Sequence record: OM386655.1
Reading direction: 5' to 3' (one strand)
From: Escherichia phage vB_EcoM_ESCO10
DNA length: 64,000 nucleotides
Both the position numbers and the translations under genes were made by a program. Below, in pieces: positions 1,861 to 57,465 of this stretch. Under the pieces are notes generated by a model that ran no database searches, was not told the DNA's origin, and saw nothing but the letters and a program-made list of their open reading frames with translations. Each line of letters begins with the position of its first letter. The stretch's first letter is position 1.

Positions 1861-2517
1861 TTATTTCCTATTAAAGTTTTCTATCATTCGTCGATAACAA
1901 ATATCAGGATATCCATTATCGACAGCTATTTTATTAAATTTGGTGCGTTTAGGTTTATTATTATAAACCCATAATTCATAAAGCGCATCATAACTATCCC
2001 ATATTTCTCCTCGCCTAGGATTTGGTAAACCGTATCGAGGTGAATTTTTACCGCTAAATCTTCCTTTTCGAGCTTTACTCATATTAGCCTTGGCTTCATC
2101 GGATATAATTTTATCTTTATGAGCTAGACGCATTTTGGCTTTAGTTTCTTCTGGGGTCTTTTTGCCTTTAATCCATGACGGCTTGCCATATCTAGGATTA
2201 TTTTCACCTGTAACTAATAGTGAATTATTTTCCCTTAATGATGCTATAGTTCTGCTAGTTAATTTAACTCCTTTATTATATCTCATTAAATTAACGGCAT
2301 GATGCAGACCTTTTACTTCAGGATACATTTTTGTTAAAAGCCTATGGGCTATAAAGTGCTCTCTTGGTAATAAAGCCACTAAATTATTTTTATCATCGGA
2401 ACCATTCATACATTTGGGTACAATATGGTGTTCTTCTGTATAATATGGTAAGGACCGCTTGGTACCTCTTAATTTTCCATTAGATATTAATTCATTGTAT
2501 ATTTTTTCATAGTTCAT
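1861..2517 (-). mobile_element. HNH homing endonuclease (mob/I-Tev-like) with NUMOD3-type repeats
   Basis: 218 aa; HNH motif EEHHIVPK...NLVALLPREHFIAH; repeated NPRYGKP / NSPRYG motifs; visibly AT-rich; sits between genes 56 and 61. Confidence 0.8.
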
Positions 2518-2773
2518 GGGATAATTATAAACTGTTTAGATTAAAGCGAATAAATATTAATTTAACAGGAGGATAACATGGGCAGTATTTTTTATCAAAT
2601 CTGGAAATTGGCCGAAAAGAAGACAAGAAAATGATGTTAGGTTTTCTTGCGCTAGACGTATTCCTTTGGAATCTTTTAGTAGTCCCTGTAGCCGCTAGCC
2701 AAGGTGTAGTTTTACCAGCGGTTACAATGGAGCACGTGTTAAGCATAATTGGATTCTTTAGCGGAATTCCTGC

Positions 2774-3802: not shown

Positions 3803-4018
3803 TATTTTTCCTTGGGCTCTAAATTAATAGAGCCATTATATCATTCGTTTTTGGATTTTTCTTTACGCTTTTTAGATGGGATTTGTTCAGGCCCTTTGTT
3901 GACGACTGCGCCTGAGGTAGTTCCGGAGGCAATATTAGATGGATTTCCACCCGCATCACCTGCGACCATATCTTCGTTCATGAACTCTTTATACGTTTTC
4001 ATAGGCTCCTGGCCTTAT

Positions 4019-9104: not shown

Positions 9105-9998
9105 TTAAAGGACCACGTCCTCATAACGTGGCATTTCGTACTCGGAATGAATATGAGCACCAAAATAAATGAATTCAGCCAAACCAGGATGGAATACTAA
9201 ACCAGGGTTCTCATGATAAATGATATGTGGTCTTGATTTCAGAATCTGGTAATATTCAACCTTACTCGGTTTGAATTTAATAATCTCTACATCAGGACGA
9301 TAGTCTCCACGTTTAAATGAATCGTTGGGGTCAGTGATATAGAGTCGAGCACCTTCAGCCGCAGCTCGGTCTACAACTCGTTCGAATTGGTAGCATTTAT
9401 CAGAGATACGAAATGGGTGAAAAATACCATCAATTTTAATAGGCGCTAGACCATCAGAGTAACGCTCAATTACTGCCGGATTAATTACCTTTTGGTCTAC
9501 AAAAATCTTATCAGAGGATGCACCTCGTGACACCAGGACGTCTTTCTGGCATTGATTCAGGACTGTAGTATAAATCGAACGTTCGACTGAAGCCACATCA
9601 ATATCAATGAATTCGTCGATATAATAACGAGGAACTTCAGGGTCCATTGTGATATTAAAGTTGAATTGTACAGTCTGGGCACCATCATAACCTGTGATAT
9701 CAGTTACCAACCCTGAGCAGTCATAGTATTCGATTAATGAATCGACTACGAACTCGTTTTCAGACCAGAAATGTTTACGGGTTTCATAAGCATTTTCTTT
9801 ATACCAAAGTGGCACAAAATTCAGTTCAGGGAATAACTCGATGCACTGGTTGATATCGCTCGAATTTCTAGGATAAGCCAGATAATCACCTGGCCGAGCA
9901 CGGTTTAAATGGAGTTGAAAATTGCCGTCCTTAAGGACAGCATATTCACCCGTTTCGTAACTACGCATACTGAAAATAGGAACGATAAACAGACTCAT
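9105..9998 (-). CDS. hypothetical protein in the beta-glucosyltransferase slot; candidate hmC DNA sugar transferase
   Basis: 297 aa; occupies the uvsX-42 position where T4 has beta-gt but does not resemble T4 Bgt; ATGA-coupled to gene 42; function inferred from position only. Confidence 0.6.
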   Translation of the reverse strand: MSLFIVPIFSMRSYETGEYAVLKDGNFQLHLNRARPGDYLAYPRNSSDINQCIELFPELNFVPLWYKENAYETRKHFWSENEFVVDSLIEYYDCSGLVTDITGYDGAQTVQFNFNITMDPEVPRYYIDEFIDIDVASVERSIYTTVLNQCQKDVLVSRGASSDKIFVDQKVINPAVIERYSDGLAPIKIDGIFHPFRISDKCYQFERVVDRAAAEGARLYITDPNDSFKRGDYRPDVEIIKFKPSKVEYYQILKSRPHIIYHENPGLVFHPGLAEFIYFGAHIHSEYEMPRYEDVVL

Positions 9999-10693
9999 TT
10001 CAGGAAACCTCGGACGTAGTCAAAATCACGTTCAAATACGTGTGCACTAACCATGGTGTGAGAATACGTACCCAAACCAACACCACACTGCTCTGCAATA
10101 AAGGCCATCAGTTTGCCCTGCAGATAGAAATCAAGCTGCATAACAACAGCACAGTTCTGTGAACGCATATGGGTATGTGCATACAAACGACCATCACGAA
10201 TGTAATACGTTACCGAATCAGTACAAGGATATTCTAGGGATTCGTCAGAATCAAGGAGAGCTTGGTCTTGTTCTTGGAGAATCTGGAACACAACTCTTCG
10301 CGAGTTAGGCTTTTCTTTAAGCTCTTTAAGTAGGGCTGGGAGCTGGGCCACAATTCGAGGTCCATAGAAAGTGTTGAAGTTTGCAGGCAATACGTCACTT
10401 TTCGGCTTATCAATGAACTTAGCAACATTAGGGTATTCCTTAAATGCTTCGGCGGCATCAGTACCACCGGAAATCATAAACTTCCAGAAAGATTCGGCAT
10501 AATCATAGTTGATACGATTAATACGAGGGTCAGTGAATTTATAGGTGCTTGCATCCAGTACTTCTACCGAAGCAGAACCAACTTCATAACAACGTCCGAT
10601 ACGAGAATCAACTGCAAACTGCGGAGCTTCCAGGATTTCTTCGTTCATTTGTTTAAATGCATTTTCAAAACTAACAGCGGTAATGTGTTTCAT
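9995..10693 (-). CDS. 42: dCMP hydroxymethylase gp42
   Basis: 232 aa; thymidylate-synthase-like; matches T4 gp42 from memory. Confidence 0.85.
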   Translation of the reverse strand: MKHITAVSFENAFKQMNEEILEAPQFAVDSRIGRCYEVGSASVEVLDASTYKFTDPRINRINYDYAESFWKFMISGGTDAAEAFKEYPNVAKFIDKPKSDVLPANFNTFYGPRIVAQLPALLKELKEKPNSRRVVFQILQEQDQALLDSDESLEYPCTDSVTYYIRDGRLYAHTHMRSQNCAVVMQLDFYLQGKLMAFIAEQCGVGLGTYSHTMVSAHVFERDFDYVRGFLK

Positions 10694-11226
10694 TTATTCA
10701 CCTTATTTTCAATATATTCATTCAGACGTTTTAATTCTACCATATCAACATTAAGCAAATTATTATGGCCATCATGATTTAAGATTTTAAACACGTTTTC
10801 AAAACATGTTTCGTATTGTCTGACAGTTAGGTTGAACTCATCTTTAGTTAATTTAATAAGGTCGTCTTCAAAGTCTTCATCCAACGGATTACGAGTTAAA
10901 ATAACCTCAATGATATTGAACTCTTCTTTGAATTCTTTCCAGTCTTTAAGCTCTTCTAATGGGTCCATTTCACCACGAAGGAATCCTGAGTAAACAATAT
11001 TACTAGGATACCCACGGTCTAAGATATAGACAAAATTTGGGTCTAAAAACTTATACAGAGTTTCAACTAGAGCCTTATCATTATCAGTTCCTAATGAAAT
11101 ACATTTACCGTTAATCTTCTTAGGAAAATCAATAAGCTTAAAATTAGTATTATTAAGTAATTTGTTAATTAAAGTAGACTTCCCGGAATTATCCGGGCCG
11201 TCGATAACAATGATTTTTGGTTTCAC
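10690..11226 (-). CDS. P-loop nucleotide/nucleoside kinase-like protein (dNK/TMK-like)
   Basis: 178 aa; Walker A IVIDGPDNSGKST at the N-terminus and DRGY motif; ATGA overlap with neighbours. Confidence 0.7.
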   Translation of the reverse strand: MKPKIIVIDGPDNSGKSTLINKLLNNTNFKLIDFPKKINGKCISLGTDNDKALVETLYKFLDPNFVYILDRGYPSNIVYSGFLRGEMDPLEELKDWKEFKEEFNIIEVILTRNPLDEDFEDDLIKLTKDEFNLTVRQYETCFENVFKILNHDGHNNLLNVDMVELKRLNEYIENKVNK

Positions 11227-11606
11227 GGATGATATGCCTTATAGGTTTCAAGAGTTCCTTCACGAACCATTTCTTTAAAGTGGTCGGGACGGATTGCTCG
11301 GTCATCAATGATAAAATTATAACTCGGCTTGTGTGTAAGCAAATTGTGATATTTCAATCCAATTTTTTCAAGGTTCTTAACCAATGCAGGAACTACTTCA
11401 ACCAAGATTCGACCAGGGCCACATGAAGTCATACCACGGGCGGTGAACAATGTAATCTCGCACCCTTCATCATAAAGCTTGTTAATCATGGACACCATTT
11501 CAGTGTCCGGTTTAAAGTTTTCATAATCACGGTCATGGTTCCAAATCGTGATTGTGTTATCTATATCAAAACATAAATGCGGCTTATTTTCTACTCGATG
11601 GGACAT
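11223..11606 (-). CDS. HAD-superfamily phosphatase (small, capless)
   Basis: HAD motifs I CFDIDNTIT, II LFTAR, III HKP, IV IIDDR; start chosen as the ATG overlapping the upstream stop (TAATG); track ORF begins 5 codons earlier. Confidence 0.75.
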   Translation of the reverse strand: MSHRVENKPHLCFDIDNTITIWNHDRDYENFKPDTEMVSMINKLYDEGCEITLFTARGMTSCGPGRILVEVVPALVKNLEKIGLKYHNLLTHKPSYNFIIDDRAIRPDHFKEMVREGTLETYKAYHP

Positions 11607-13279
11607 TAAATTTTCTTCCATTGTTTGTGGAGTTCAGTAGAACCTGTAGGTTTATATTTTACACCAGTTTCCTGGTCAAGCAAAACCCACTTATCAGGAC
11701 AACGAGTAATAATTTGTGCCGTAATAGGGTCACGAACTTCATCAACGAATTCACCTGTAATAAGCTTACGCTTACGAGGGTGCCGCTTAAGCAACACACT
11801 CAGTTGGTACAAACCATTGTAATAAGCACCTAGAGCTTTCAGAGGATTATTCTTAAAGTAACCCGCTAGCGCCATCCAAATAACAGCAATCCAGAGCTTG
11901 TGCTTAAATGTACACATCGGAATATCGTCTAAAGGCATGACCTTTTCAATATCAACGAATACGCGAGTTCCATTACGGGTTAAGCCACCCCATAGAGGGT
12001 CTGAGTTAAATTTATCATAGCCATCGATAGAATAAAGAACCTTAGCTTCATCATAAATCGCAGGGCCTTTAGAACTATTGCCGAAATAACCACGTGGGTC
12101 GATGATTTTAATATCACCTTCGTCCGACAGCATAATATTACTGTAGTGCGGGTCGCCATGAATAAGTTGATACGGTTCTTTATGTTCAGACAGAATTTCT
12201 AAGGCATGACGAAGAAGTTTTTCTGGATTACCAACCTTGAAATCGTTAACATGGGTGATGCCCTGTGGAGCAAAGCCTTCAATCAATCCAGCAATAGAAG
12301 CATTACGAATCAGGACCTTGTCCAATACTTCTTTCTTAACATCAGAATACCATTGCTCATCAGATGGGTTATCGATAGTTCCGCCAAATGAACGTAATGC
12401 ACTAATGACCTTATAAACCATGAGGACTTTAGTTTCTTTAGACATAAACCGGTAGGCGTCCGCCATAGTACGGCCAAAAATACGTTCCATCTTAATAAAT
12501 TCACCTGGAGCAAAGTCTACAATGCTCGGAACGAATTCAGAATCAATAGAATTATACCAATTGATTTCTTTAGATTGAATTTCTTTACCTAATTCGTTGG
12601 TTGGTACTTTAATAGCCAGATTCTCAGTGAATTCTAATTTATTAAATTCGCGATTAATTTCAGAATCTTCATGAGCCTTGGCCAGTTTCAGTTTATCGCC
12701 AACATCAACTACAAAGTCCAGCTTACGTTCAGTCAAATAAACCATTGAATCCAGATTGTCCGCAAGGTCTTCGCCGTAATTAGAGCGGTCGAATCCTGTC
12801 CAATTCGCCACCTGATACAAACCAACTACACCACCACCTGTACCAATTTCACGTAAGTACGGTTCTTCAAATGTAAAGCGACAATCGGTCCCATAGGTAT
12901 AACAATAATCATTACCCCACTCAACTTTATGGCCTTCAGGAATTATGTCACACCAGTTAAATAGAACGTTATGCCCGATAATATCTTCAGCAATGCAATC
13001 AATAGCATGAGCTGAACCGTTAGCAACATCCACATTACGAATAGTGAATTTAGGCTTATCACTAGTAATCATGTTAATGGATTTAATATAGCCTTTAACG
13101 AGGTCGTTAAATTTGCTGTGAATAACCAGAATAATTTCATCTGATTGGTTACTATACAAATCATACAAATGCTTTAATACCGTATGTTGTTTATAGTTAA
13201 CCAATACCTTAGGGATTTCATTAGTAATTGGATACAACCGTGAGCCAAGACCTGCGCCTAAAATAACAACCTTTTTCAT
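11606..13279 (-). CDS. bifunctional sugar-1-phosphate nucleotidyltransferase (N-terminal) / APH-choline-kinase-fold kinase (C-terminal)
   Basis: 557 aa from ATG with GAGGAA RBS; N-terminal VVILGAGLGSRLYPIT (GlmU/RmlA-type motif); C-terminal HGDPHYSNIML...IDPRG (Brenner catalytic loop of APH/CK kinases). Confidence 0.8.
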   Translation of the reverse strand: MKKVVILGAGLGSRLYPITNEIPKVLVNYKQHTVLKHLYDLYSNQSDEIILVIHSKFNDLVKGYIKSINMITSDKPKFTIRNVDVANGSAHAIDCIAEDIIGHNVLFNWCDIIPEGHKVEWGNDYCYTYGTDCRFTFEEPYLREIGTGGGVVGLYQVANWTGFDRSNYGEDLADNLDSMVYLTERKLDFVVDVGDKLKLAKAHEDSEINREFNKLEFTENLAIKVPTNELGKEIQSKEINWYNSIDSEFVPSIVDFAPGEFIKMERIFGRTMADAYRFMSKETKVLMVYKVISALRSFGGTIDNPSDEQWYSDVKKEVLDKVLIRNASIAGLIEGFAPQGITHVNDFKVGNPEKLLRHALEILSEHKEPYQLIHGDPHYSNIMLSDEGDIKIIDPRGYFGNSSKGPAIYDEAKVLYSIDGYDKFNSDPLWGGLTRNGTRVFVDIEKVMPLDDIPMCTFKHKLWIAVIWMALAGYFKNNPLKALGAYYNGLYQLSVLLKRHPRKRKLITGEFVDEVRDPITAQIITRCPDKWVLLDQETGVKYKPTGSTELHKQWKKI

Positions 13280-13339
13280 TATCTGTTCCTCAAGTGAATG
13301 TAGGTACATTATACACTATTTTTAATAAATTTCTATTGC

Positions 13340-13840
13340 TTAAATCTTATCTTTACCGTATTCCATACACTGTTCTAATGCGGCAGGCACTTTGGTCTTA
13401 AGCTTGTTGATTTGTTTCTTATAATCACGGGCCTTATCAAAGCTTTCAGTTTCGAGCATTTCGTAATAACGGGCCTCATGGATGGAAATCTGTAGATTGA
13501 TATGATTATAACACATTGAGTACAGTTTCTGTTTCTTATATAGGTCGTCTTGTCGCTTCATTTCTGCCTGGTGTTTGGCAAGTACGGCTTCGCGCTTAGA
13601 CTCTTGTTCACGTTGAAATTCAATTTCACGAGCCGCATATTTACCGCAGTTATTTCCGCATTGGTTATTAGCTCGGGTATAAGTAATTCCCGACCCGGCG
13701 CGGAACTTAACTTCACCATCATACTGTTTCTGTTCAGCTGCAATACGAGCTTTACCTACTTCGTCAGCTGTAATAGCTTCACCGTATTGGACTGCACACC
13801 CAGAGAGTAATAATGATGCTGCGATAATTAGCTTTTTCAC
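13340..13840 (-). CDS. lipoprotein (166 aa)
   Basis: signal peptide with lipobox LLSGC; charged coiled-coil-like remainder. Confidence 0.6.
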   Translation of the reverse strand: MKKLIIAASLLLSGCAVQYGEAITADEVGKARIAAEQKQYDGEVKFRAGSGITYTRANNQCGNNCGKYAAREIEFQREQESKREAVLAKHQAEMKRQDDLYKKQKLYSMCYNHINLQISIHEARYYEMLETESFDKARDYKKQINKLKTKVPAALEQCMEYGKDKI

Positions 13841-44073: not shown

Positions 44074-44323
44074 ATGTCAAGAGGCTACGAGTTATAATAC
44101 CCTTACATGGTCCTGAGATGAACTCTAGAGTGAAGTAAGGAACTTGTTTCATTAATCGGATACTTGGGGCATGGCATCTAAAACGAGAGCCTGTAAATGG
44201 CCCTGACATGAACACGTATTCTAATGGATAGAAATATGCGTATTCAAAATTTATAGTAAGGTCTTCTCTTCGAACCTTACGTGAGAAATAGCAGAACTCA
44301 AAAAGCTCTTCATCAGTCATCAT
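44027..44323 (-). CDS. hypothetical protein (98 aa)
   Basis: ORF. Confidence 0.4.
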   Translation of the reverse strand: MMTDEELFEFCYFSRKVRREDLTINFEYAYFYPLEYVFMSGPFTGSRFRCHAPSIRLMKQVPYFTLEFISGPCKGIITRSLLTYDQEIRMVNDWKKYV

Positions 44324-44910
44324 TGCATTCCAATCACAAAAAATTGAGGTCGAGTATTACCACCAATGCAAAATTTACTATCGCAGCAGTACTGTACAGT
44401 GTCAATATGGGCACTATAAATCTTATCCATATCAGGAGATTTAATAGGCTCATCAATTATATACAAAATTCGCGAAAGCTTTAAACCTCTGAACTTGCTT
44501 CCTTTATTACCGATAAAGCTACGTAATGAATCATGGAAAAGCCGGTAACGAATATCTTCCGCGCTAAAACGAATAAAATCATTTTTGATAGAATCGGATG
44601 AAATTTTAGCGTAAGCTGAAGTATTAGAAAGAACAATAACTGTTCCGCCATCATATAACCAATTGGCAGCAAAGTTAGTCACAGCAATTGATTTACCGGA
44701 TTGACGTCCACCATCTATACGAAGTGTGCAATACTGTTTAAGTACGTCTTCAAATGGCGGGATATAATCGTTTTTACAAAGTTCTTCTATTCGAGCATCA
44801 GAATGGTGGGTAAAAGCATTCATCAGGGATAGATAAGGTCCGGTTAAAAAAGTTCTCATATTGTTTCTCTTAAGGTTTTGGGGCCATTCCTTGGCACATA
44901 ATTCATCCAT
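44320..44910 (-). CDS. P-loop NTPase-like protein (196 aa)
   Basis: Walker A-like GGRQSGKS. Confidence 0.5.
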   Translation of the reverse strand: MDELCAKEWPQNLKRNNMRTFLTGPYLSLMNAFTHHSDARIEELCKNDYIPPFEDVLKQYCTLRIDGGRQSGKSIAVTNFAANWLYDGGTVIVLSNTSAYAKISSDSIKNDFIRFSAEDIRYRLFHDSLRSFIGNKGSKFRGLKLSRILYIIDEPIKSPDMDKIYSAHIDTVQYCCDSKFCIGGNTRPQFFVIGMQ

Positions 44911-45021
44911 GTATCCGTATGTAACCCTTTACCGCACTTGGGCTCGACCTTATTACAGGTAGGGAAAGGTCCATCACTCAGAGGACGCGACGTTCATGAG
45001 GAGAGGGCCGGCTTGCCTTTA

Positions 45022-45321
45022 TTAGAAAGAACCAGAGCCTTTAATTGTATTCTGACGTCCTTTATTTTCTACTTCAGAGTGGTCGATTTCGTAAGCTTGT
45101 GCTACACCAAAGGATTTTTTAATTTTAGCCAATGAGCCTTTAGAAATAACAATGTTAAAGGTGTTGCCTTTAGAAAAATCAACCAACTCTACAGTAACAC
45201 CGTTATTGGTTAAACTATTAACAATAGCATCAACATATTGCTGGTCTAAAGTTCCCTGAACGCCAATTTGAAAAGCTTTAGGTGCTTTAGCTTCAGTGAT
45301 AAATTCTTGATATGTTTTCAT
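45022..45321 (-). CDS. internal protein (IP) with capsid targeting sequence
   Basis: N-terminus MKTYQEFITEAK matches the T4 IP capsid-targeting sequence (MKTYQEFIAEA). Confidence 0.65.
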   Translation of the reverse strand: MKTYQEFITEAKAPKAFQIGVQGTLDQQYVDAIVNSLTNNGVTVELVDFSKGNTFNIVISKGSLAKIKKSFGVAQAYEIDHSEVENKGRQNTIKGSGSF

Positions 45322-45329
45322 ATTATTCC

Positions 45330-45689
45330 TTAAAGATGGTCAAGGGCTGGGTTATGAGGTTTTTCTGCTTTAGTAGTGTTTTTATGCCAATCTGATTTAG
45401 AAACACGGATGGCATCAGCGCCATAAGAACTCTTAAGGAGACCTTTTTTATTGTACACACTTATTGAAGTAAGAGAATCACCATTCCATGTAGCATGAAT
45501 GAAGTTAGATTTAGATTTAAGTTCTTTAGCCAAGCTCTGGTTAGTGGCCATGGAAGCAAAGTCTATACCTGTAACTTTAAAAACTTCAGATGGGTTCAGC
45601 CCTTCTTTAGCCTTAGCCAATTGTTCAGGAGACATACCTTCGTTAATGCGCTGAGTAGATTCAGTAATAAATTGTTTGTAAGTTTTCAT
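45330..45689 (-). CDS. internal protein (IP) with capsid targeting sequence
   Basis: N-terminus MKTYKQFITES. Confidence 0.65.
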   Translation of the reverse strand: MKTYKQFITESTQRINEGMSPEQLAKAKEGLNPSEVFKVTGIDFASMATNQSLAKELKSKSNFIHATWNGDSLTSISVYNKKGLLKSSYGADAIRVSKSDWHKNTTKAEKPHNPALDHL

Positions 45690-45731
45690 ATTATTCCTTA
45701 AGTTGATAGAAGTATTCTATCACGGATTTAA

Positions 45732-46148
45732 TTAAGCGTAAATAGCCTTACCATAATGTTTGTACCAGGTAGGGCGTTGTGCAATTTTTTCGTCTAAACG
45801 GGCTTGTGATATAGCGATAGAAGCTTCATGGGGAATATAATCACCACGGAATTCCTGAGGAATATCACTAATATCCTGGACTGTAGTATCCTTGATATTA
45901 AACCCGCGTTTTAGACATTCGGCTATAAGCTCAATTTGACGTTTACGTAAGAACTCAAGCTTATCGTAAAAGAATGTAACATGACCCGTGCCAAGGATAA
46001 AACCTGAGCTGATTTTAAAATCACGAACACGTTTACCATTAGCAACATGCTTACGAACTGCACTGAAAACACGTGGTAATTCACGATATTCAGCCATTAA
46101 GTGTTGGTCAGCCAATTCAGATACTAAAGTAAGGTTGATACGAGTCAT
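45732..46148 (-). CDS. denV: endonuclease V (pyrimidine-dimer DNA glycosylase) DenV
   Basis: 138 aa from [26 protein letters not shown] (near-identical to T4 DenV from memory); track ORF is extended 59 codons upstream; RBS AGGAG. Confidence 0.9.
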
Positions 46149-46162
46149 TTTTAATCTCCTGT

Positions 46163-46205
46163 GTCGGTATGAGAGTATCATATCACAACTACAGGAGATG
46201 TAAAC
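46163..46205 (-). promoter_or_regulatory. early-promoter-like element (divergent member of repeat family)
   Basis: GTTTAC with conserved spacer; located between e and denV. Confidence 0.45.
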
Positions 46206-46704: not shown

Positions 46705-46705
46705 A

Positions 46706-46729
46706 ATACCTCCTGAGTATAGGAGGTAT
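46706..46729 (-). promoter_or_regulatory. SD-sequestering hairpin in the gene e leader, with late-promoter-like AATAAATA just upstream
   Basis: inverted repeat ATACCTCCT / AGGAGGTAT; the 3' arm is the Shine-Dalgarno and the ATG follows 2 nt later. Confidence 0.6.
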
Positions 46730-46738
46730 TTATTATTC

Positions 46739-54664: not shown

Positions 54665-55126
54665 TTATTTGATTTGTTTAGCAGACCAAATGCGGTCTTT
54701 GATGATTTTTTGGAGGTCTTCAACATACTCTAGGTCATGAGCATGTGGATTATCTTTAAAACTATGAGCTCGCGCAAGTTTCTGGCCTTCAGTCTTAATT
54801 ACCAAAAGTTCTTTAAGAATTGCTTCATATCTAGAGATAATTCCTTTAGCAATATTTTTTTCTTGTGCTGCTTTAGGGTCAGCCTTAGGAGCAGGTTTAC
54901 CAGAAGGTTTTTCGAAAGCCGCCCCAGTAGCAACCAGGCTTTTCCAGGCGGTGGTAACATAGTTACCCACAAAGCCTTCAGCTCTCATATCGTCGTAGAA
55001 CTTGTACCGAGATTCGTCAGAAGCATCTTTATAAGAATATTTACCTGCTTGGATAGCTGCTTGAGCTGCTGCACGAACATCAGAACTAGATGCTTCGGTC
55101 ATTAAAAATTCGTTGTAAGTTTTCAT
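54665..55126 (-). CDS. internal protein (IP) with capsid targeting sequence
   Basis: 153 aa; N-terminus MKTYNEFLMTEA; late promoter box about 29 bp upstream. Confidence 0.6.
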   Translation of the reverse strand: MKTYNEFLMTEASSSDVRAAAQAAIQAGKYSYKDASDESRYKFYDDMRAEGFVGNYVTTAWKSLVATGAAFEKPSGKPAPKADPKAAQEKNIAKGIISRYEAILKELLVIKTEGQKLARAHSFKDNPHAHDLEYVEDLQKIIKDRIWSAKQIK

Positions 55127-57240: not shown

Positions 57241-57465
57241 TTATTCAACACCAGCTGCTTTCAAAAGTTTTTTAAGATTGGCTGTGCCCTGAGCAGAAAA
57301 CGTGACCTTGCCACCTTTTTCACTGATAGAACCAACCAATTTGGCAAGTTTATCATTAGGAATTTTTTTAAAATCGGCCAATGTTCCATCAAAGGTTTTT
57401 GAAACAAAAGGCAGTTCGTCTTCGTGTCTTTTAGCTTCTGTGATAAATTCTTGATATGTTTTCAT
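57241..57465 (-). CDS. small internal-protein-like protein with capsid targeting sequence (74 aa from ATG)
   Basis: N-terminus MKTYQEFITEAK from internal ATG; track start is a leader extension. Confidence 0.55.
   Translation of the reverse strand: MKTYQEFITEAKRHEDELPFVSKTFDGTLADFKKIPNDKLAKLVGSISEKGGKVTFSAQGTANLKKLLKAAGVE

Follow-up and report, generated by a model that had tools for sequence, protein, structure and literature searches.

Two small genes, here called A and B, lie one behind the other on the minus strand at positions 45,022 to 45,689 of a 64,000-nucleotide (nt) stretch of DNA from Escherichia phage vB_EcoM_ESCO10 (record OM386655.1; the whole stretch is referred to below as the window), and each encodes a protein that opens like the internal head proteins of phage T4. 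The question that this locus raises is whether the two products are packaged in the phage head and delivered into the host together with the DNA, and what they might act on once there. Our analysis indicates that A and B are probably T4-type internal head proteins, which would follow a five-step path leading from transcription with a neighboring gene to the blocking of a host nuclease. The open reading frame (ORF) list and the motif searches give the following features, with protein lengths in amino acids (aa).

45330..45689, minus strand: gene A, encoding a 119-aa precursor of an unnamed internal protein (PHROG 3966); from the ORF list, beginning MKTYKQFITESTQ / MKTYKQFITESTQRINEG.
45022..45321, minus strand: gene B, encoding a 99-aa precursor of an Ip7-family internal head protein; from the ORF list, beginning MKTYQEFITEAKA / MKTYQEFITEAKAPK.
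45660..45689, minus strand: capsid-targeting sequence (tag) of A, MKTYKQFITE, with a predicted cut after Glu10 (ITE|S).
45292..45321, minus strand: capsid-targeting sequence of B, MKTYQEFITE, with a predicted cut after Glu10 (ITE|A).
45639..45659, minus strand: residues 11–17 of A (STQRINE), a possible extended propeptide suggested by the motif scan and alignments.
45322..45333, minus strand: junction of the two genes, TTAAGGAATAAT, the ribosome-binding site of B, which contains the TAA stop codon of A (45330–45332).
45690..45701, minus strand: second copy of the 12-nt TTAAGGAATAAT, the ribosome-binding site of A.

The preliminary description of this locus had assigned the N termini of both proteins, written as MKTY(Q/K)(E/Q)FITE, to the T4 capsid-targeting type, and this assignment is confirmed by the ORFs and by the translated T4 proteins. 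The ORF bounds are exactly those given there; the strand, which it leaves unstated, is the minus strand, and the gap between A and B is 8 nt. Translation of the T4T record gives MKTYQEFIAE as the start of both IPII and IPIII; the tag of B is identical to it at 9/10 positions and that of A at 7/10. T4 IPI starts MKTFKEF and has a longer leader. The identical 12-mer TTAAGGAATAAT, with its Shine-Dalgarno sequence, is positioned ahead of both start codons. A scan of the window in six frames with the regular expression M[KR][TS][YF]xx[FL][ILV]xE returned three matches to this strict pattern, and in each of them the Met is the start of a printed ORF. Because the strict tag is found only three times in the window, at ORF starts, and identical copies of TTAAGGAATAAT precede A and B, the tags of the two genes are not a product of chance. 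The ratio of nonsynonymous to synonymous substitution rates (dN/dS), determined against the orthologues in phages KIT01, ABTNLsp5, and VR5, was 0.02–0.27 overall (0.07–0.27 for A and 0.02–0.10 for B), and A and B are therefore genuine genes, both under purifying selection.

Residues with demonstrated roles in T4 are retained in both proteins. The first ten residues of IPIII are sufficient for head incorporation; positions 4 and 7 matter in targeting and positions 8 and 10 in cleavage (PMC9026906). The corresponding Tyr4, Phe7, Ile8, and Glu10 are present in both A and B, whose tags begin at the first ATG. The Ile/Leu-x-Glu motif of the prohead protease gp21 is found as ITE at residues 8–10 of both, and in an alignment of B with its relatives (19 sequences), M1, T3, E6, F7, I8, and E10 are invariant while K2, Y4, and T9 are nearly so. 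Cleavage after Glu10 would yield a mature A of residues 11–119 (11.9 kDa, isoelectric point (pI) 9.4) and a mature B of residues 11–99 (9.5 kDa, pI 9.0). A second Ile-x-Glu (INE) is observed at residues 15–17 of A, and BLASTP sets it opposite the ITE|A that ends the T4 IPI leader; the surrounding residues 13–18 (QRINEG) are missing in the Mosigvirus homologues. A second cut of A after Glu17 is possible to judge from these alignments, and mature A would in that case comprise residues 18–119. The predicted mature N termini are STQRINEGMSPEQLAK or GMSPEQLAK for A and AKAPK... for B.

With the tag, the cleavage motif, and the locus all pointing the same way, the internal-protein class proposed in the preliminary description is well supported, and it is very likely that A and B are both packaged and processed. 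Since Tyr4 and Phe7 are conserved and targeting has been shown for the T4 IPIII tag, the ten-residue tag is expected to bind each protein to the scaffolding core, so that it would be built into the prohead. There gp21 would cleave both proteins behind Glu10 (ITE|S in A, ITE|A in B), with a possible further cut after Glu17 of A, to leave products of ~11.9 and ~9.5 kDa that, being small and basic, would remain in the head with the DNA. VR5 encodes gp21 and the core proteins gp22, gp67, and gp68, and the matching genes fall outside the 64-kilobase (kb) window. Mature A and B would then be ejected into the cell along with the DNA; for T4, foreign proteins that carry the tag as a fusion are reported to be taken up into the head and passed on to the host cell (PMC9026906). 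A literature search for virion proteomics of Ip7 or of phages carrying A found nothing usable.

The preliminary description had further held that the bodies of the two proteins are unlike those of the T4 internal proteins, making them candidate injected anti-defense factors with new specificities. The unlikeness was borne out in six BLASTP comparisons of A and B with T4 IPI, IPII, and IPIII, in which essentially the leader alone aligned; similarity ended at residue 12–18 in three of the four IPII/IPIII pairs, and a weak stretch of 29% identity reached residue 33 in the A–IPIII pair. Novelty of the protein body holds for A, which is unnamed (PHROG 3966), and fails for B. Over residues 1–99, B matches PHROG 2667, annotated "internal head protein" (E 5.7e-42), and it is 99% identical to VR5 ip7, ~88% to VR20 ip7, and 52% to T2 Ip7, with relatives in 283 phage records. 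It also resembles Ip7 members in tag, length, and the C-terminal RxNT motif. By sequence, B is thus a member of the long-named Ip7 family and not new; the name dates from a 1990s database record, and an RB15 ip7 record also exists.

A matches PHROG 3966, a family with no assigned function, over its full length (E 2.4e-25). Relatives of A were found in 89 phage records, 12 at >90% identity and 77 at ~35%. The former include orthologues in KIT01, WG01, PSD9, AnYang, and ABTNLsp5 (92–97% identity), and the latter are represented by APCEc01 and similar phages, in which the homologue occupies the same locus and carries the same tag. The distant homologues keep the tag MKTYQEFITE at a whole-protein identity to A of 36–37%. 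Among the 40 of 89 matching records that were listed, the protein is annotated as "hypothetical" or not at all, never as an internal protein. A word-indexed search of 5.8 billion proteins and an exhaustive HMMER search of 1.84 billion representatives returned only two sequence clusters for A. Six more HMMER matches, all in large proteins (E 8e-9 to 5e-4, 5–10 stretches each), were rejected as repeat-inflated chance: the four of these that were scanned contain unrelated Pfam domains (galaxin repeats, helicase, FAD-binding, and InlB repeat), and BLASTP of A against one large protein, P0025, produced many short ~20-bit alignments to a tandem repeat.

A and B are not related to each other beyond the N terminus, as their common part in BLASTP is the 11 N-terminal residues or tag only, and A does not belong to the Ip7 family. 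Pfam, NCBIfam, and PDB sequence searches of A and B gave no significant match. Membership in the family of Bas37_0260, a tag-bearing protein of phage KarlGJung, was also rejected; its gene was located in MZ501089, and the product is without similarity to A or B past the tag. Tag-removed BLASTP against Bas37_0260 gave no match for A, B, or two further tag-like ORFs of the window, 57241..57465 and 54665..55126. The structure model of B is ferredoxin-like, that of A matched no solved fold, and for neither model do the 60 best structural matches listed include IPI*. Neither predicted fold points to an activity. Judged by sequence, A and B have the class's delivery signal, yet none of the families with a known target includes them.

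The window derives from a T4-like phage of the Tevenvirinae; its nearest record, VR5 (Dhakavirus), is 94.9% identical to it over 81% of a 24-kb query. PHROG and Pfam matches gave the identity of the flanking genes, and the order on the minus strand is nudE, e (lysozyme), denV, A, B, and vs.8. A and B occupy one of the two known variable internal-protein loci (e/denV/vs.8 and 57B/tRNA). Comparison of the locus across relatives (T4, VR5, KIT01, ABTNLsp5, and APCEc01), as the preliminary description had envisaged, revealed variable tag-bearing genes around denV; the gene orders below all run in the orientation used for the window.

45732..46148, minus strand: denV, encoding endonuclease V, the conserved anchor of the locus (PHROG 1183, E 3.8e-62; Pfam Pyr_excise).
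T4: e, ipIII, ipII, denV, vs.8.
VR5: e, ip3, ip7, denV, vs.8.
KIT01 and ABTNLsp5: e, a pair of tag-bearing ORFs, denV, the orthologues of A and B in that order, vs.8.
APCEc01 (Mosigvirus): four tag-bearing ORFs, the first ahead of denV and the other three behind it, the last being a homologue of A.

The slots ahead of denV are empty in the window, and no record in the phage collection was collinear with its exact arrangement. In the APCEc01 locus, ORF 2343..2597 beside denV starts MYQEFIIE, a tag without the first two residues after Met, and is either a decaying internal-protein gene or one with a miscalled start.

Positions of Ip7 genes differ between phages. In T2 the gene is part of the other locus, flanked by 57B and the tRNA genes; in VR5 it lies between ip3 and denV, while B follows denV and A and directly precedes vs.8. 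The DNA similarity of the window to VR5 ip7 (96.3%) spans exactly 45023–45321 and stops at the ORF borders, and VR5 ip7 sits on the opposite side of denV. KIT01 is nearly identical to the window at 44900–45040, which covers the downstream spacer and the 3′ end of B, and again at 45346–45750, with 6 differences/357 nt in gene A, whereas the body of B (45050–45345) is ~17% divergent. Given this near-identity on both flanks, the divergence of the B body, and the match to VR5 ip7, it looks as though the B allele was replaced, with one crossover in a ~45-nt segment of ribosome-site and tag DNA. This segment recurs before other internal-protein genes with 81–97% DNA identity (five loci, blastn). What the locus adds is one unnamed family and one clear case of such an allele swap; it is otherwise an ordinary example of a gene-shuffling locus.

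The last step of the path, the action of mature A and B in the cell, is modeled on internal proteins of known function. In the established view, the internal proteins of T-even phages are a diverse injected anti-restriction set with only the tag in common (PMC3012670). In T4, Ip1, Ip2, and Ip3 are each directed at a GmrSD enzyme of their own, which they inhibit without cross-protection, and the authors of that study proposed GmrSD variants as the targets of the accessory proteins encoded at both Ip loci (PMC12373910). IPII and IPIII (Ip2 and Ip3) have in common with A and B the e/denV neighborhood, a near-identical tag, and the types of early promoter and ribosome-binding site, and IPII, at 100 aa, is also similar in size; ipIII and ipII differ in preceding denV, whereas A and B follow it, and in having known GmrSD targets, unlike A and B. 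T4 IPI/IPI*, the inhibitor of the GmrSD of E. coli CT596, is likewise small, packaged, processed, and injected, but it is encoded at the other locus (57B–tRNA) and has no similarity to A or B beyond the leader. Bas37_0260 (77 aa, tag MKTYQEFIAE, in the ipI locus) is a tag-bearing protein that inhibits a non-GmrSD Type IV enzyme, McrBC (preprint 10.1101/2025.11.20.689424). By analogy with Ip1, Ip2, and Ip3, which act on three GmrSD enzymes, and with Bas37_0260, which acts on McrBC, A and B would bind and block one host modification-dependent (Type IV) nuclease variant that otherwise would cut hypermodified cytosine DNA. The anti-defense role put forward in the preliminary description is thus one that we infer by analogy, and we place the chances that Type IV restriction inhibition is the function of A and B at about even.

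A structural or DNA-neutralizing role has long been proposed for the basic T4 internal proteins. If A and B were packaged for such a purpose, aiding core or head assembly or binding and neutralizing the packaged DNA, the high pI values of their mature forms (9.4 and 9.0) and the fact that no target was found for Ip7 would be readily accommodated, and T4 IPIII mutants indeed show slower head assembly, a lower burst size, and more polyheads (PMC9026906). The T4 internal proteins are nevertheless dispensable on laboratory hosts (PMC9026906), and each of the three has since proved to be a specific inhibitor of GmrSD (PMC12373910). The gene content of the locus moreover varies between close relatives, with alleles swapped, a pattern that an arms race fits better, and a structural or physical role is in our estimate rather unlikely.

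A and B could instead be injected anti-defense proteins with a target other than a Type IV enzyme, such as another immediate-early threat to the DNA or an abortive infection system. Consistent with this, the seven genes ip4–10 from T4-like phages yielded no new partner among the newly active GmrSD systems tested (PMC12373910), and Alt, which is likewise packaged in the T4 head and processed by gp21, acts as an ADP-ribosyltransferase rather than by inhibiting a nuclease (PMC9026906); A is, in addition, without a detectable fold relative. Set against these points, all four internal proteins with a known target (4/4) inhibit Type IV enzymes, and A and B have neither a catalytic domain nor a Pfam or NCBIfam match. 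We consider such a target unlikely for the pair and prefer the Type IV inhibitor model.

Inhibition of a Type IV enzyme presupposes a modified genome, and modified DNA needing protection is plausible in this phage because a non-T4-like gene cluster is positioned between uvsX and the DNA polymerase gene (9105..13840, minus strand) and Dhakaviruses are listed, together with Mosigviruses, among the phages with cytosine arabinosylation genes (PMC13326640). The cluster encodes a thymidylate-synthase homologue (232 aa), a P-loop kinase-like ORF (178 aa), an ORF resembling a nucleotidyltransferase and sugar kinase (567 aa), and three ORFs without a family match. No glucosyltransferase match was found in it, with two of the six ORFs scanned against Pfam and the 297-aa ORF giving no match of any kind. 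This 297-aa ORF lies at what we take to be the position expected for T4 beta-gt. The cluster is similar to the RB69-type cytosine arabinosylation cluster of PMC13326640. In a 2026 paper, arabinosylated 5-hydroxycytosine, not glucosyl-hydroxymethylcytosine, is proposed for the Dhakavirus- and Mosigvirus-type lineages, and the DNA modification to be protected may differ from that of T4. Among the records inspected, the A family was found only in Dhakavirus-type and Mosigvirus-type relatives of T4. A bolder proposal would make A the founder of an unrecognized internal-protein family, an injected inhibitor of an undescribed nuclease that recognizes arabinosylated cytosine DNA, with a fold unlike any solved structure; we regard this as improbable.

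Several observations weigh against the path proposed for A and B. For T-even ip7, inhibition of GmrSD could not be reproduced, the apparent interaction with system CLS_011 included (PMC12373910). Expression is the weakest step of the path, and no canonical late promoter (TATAAATA) was found on the minus strand in the 43–48 kb region. The candidate signals are the following.

46177..46204, minus strand: T4-type early promoter (GTTTACA...TATGAT) upstream of denV, matching at 10/12 positions with TG present.
45714..45742, minus strand: promoter-like site (TTTACG, 17 nt, TAGAAT, with TG) across the denV stop and just upstream of A, a weak match at 9/12 positions.
46727..46734, minus strand: near-consensus late promoter AATAAATA upstream of gene e, the sole late candidate through denV, A, and B.

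A and B would be transcribed together with denV from the early promoter at 46204–46177, the likely start of a denV–A–B message; late in infection, transcripts begun at the late promoter of gene e would presumably run on into them. Between denV, A, and B there is no terminator beyond what chance predicts, and promoter-like sites are no more numerous in the region than in shuffled sequence. A unit of ~36 nt in early-promoter form (GTTTACATCTCCTGTAG...TATGATACT) is found before denV here and also before T4 ipII, ipIII, and denV and KIT01 regB, and such recurring units could mediate the loss of genes between e and denV. Where the window and VR5 have AATAAATA ahead of gene e, T4 carries TATAAATA in two perfect copies and KIT01 in one exact copy. 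Unlike A and B, the three remaining tag-like ORFs of the window are each preceded by a TATAAATA of their own. A hairpin, AATACCTCCTGAGTATAGGAGGTATT, at 46705..46734 covers the ribosome-binding site of the lysozyme gene e, with the near-consensus late promoter overlapping its 5′ arm; such a hairpin is the known early/late translational switch of T4 gene e.

With an early promoter upstream of denV–A–B and no dedicated late promoter, the tag might be viewed as a recombination relic, such that one or both proteins would be made early and stay unpackaged, as cytoplasmic accessory proteins or with no function; the truncated MYQEFIIE of the APCEc01 neighbor ORF indicates that tags can decay. The same type of early promoter nevertheless precedes T4 ipII and ipIII, the products of which are reported at ~360–370 copies of each per head (Table 1 of PMC9026906). 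The tag is furthermore kept in both families despite synonymous DNA change and large divergence of the rest of the protein, and dN/dS is far below 1, which together make a relic very improbable. We accordingly retain the interpretation of A and B as packaged internal proteins, with their expression as its most tentative part.

Tag-bearing internal proteins constitute a ready list of proteins that are delivered before any phage gene expression, and the four whose targets are known have each led to a particular variant of modification-dependent restriction. For this reason orphans such as Ip7 and the A family are practical probes for further host nucleases and for the strain-level host range of therapeutic T4-like phages. 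The locus also displays exchange at nucleotide resolution, in ORF-sized units with a crossover in shared ribosome-site and tag DNA. Current understanding is unchanged by these results, and their main value lies in an orphan pair for screens of defense inhibitors.

The spacer between B and the likely vs.8 start (44860..45021, 160 nt) is non-coding with raised G+C (44–48%), and its part at 44900–45021 is almost identical in KIT01. An RNA element in this spacer was considered and rejected, as there was no Rfam match and no excess folding energy, the fold energy being equal to that of shuffles (z = -0.01); the spacer may be a remnant of a longer, T4-type 5′ end of vs.8. A group II intron match at 44130–44310 was weak (24 bits, below the gathering score of 40; E 0.086) and was taken as chance.

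The three other tag-like ORFs of the window all lie on the minus strand with TATAAATA directly upstream.

57241..57465, minus strand: 74 aa, beginning MKTYQEFITEAK, PHROG 8765 ("internal virion protein").
54665..55126, minus strand: 153 aa, beginning MKTYNEFLMTE, with the Leu-x-Glu spacing off by one, PHROG 2280 (no function given).
3841..4002, minus strand: 53 aa, beginning MKTYKEFMNED, PHROG 1823 (no function given).

The last of these lies immediately downstream from the primase gene and falls in neither of the two classical internal-protein loci. A homing-endonuclease ORF (1861..2517, minus strand, PHROG 655) is found between the primase gene and a gene for a nucleoside triphosphate pyrophosphohydrolase, which is probably T4 gene 56, encoding dCTPase.
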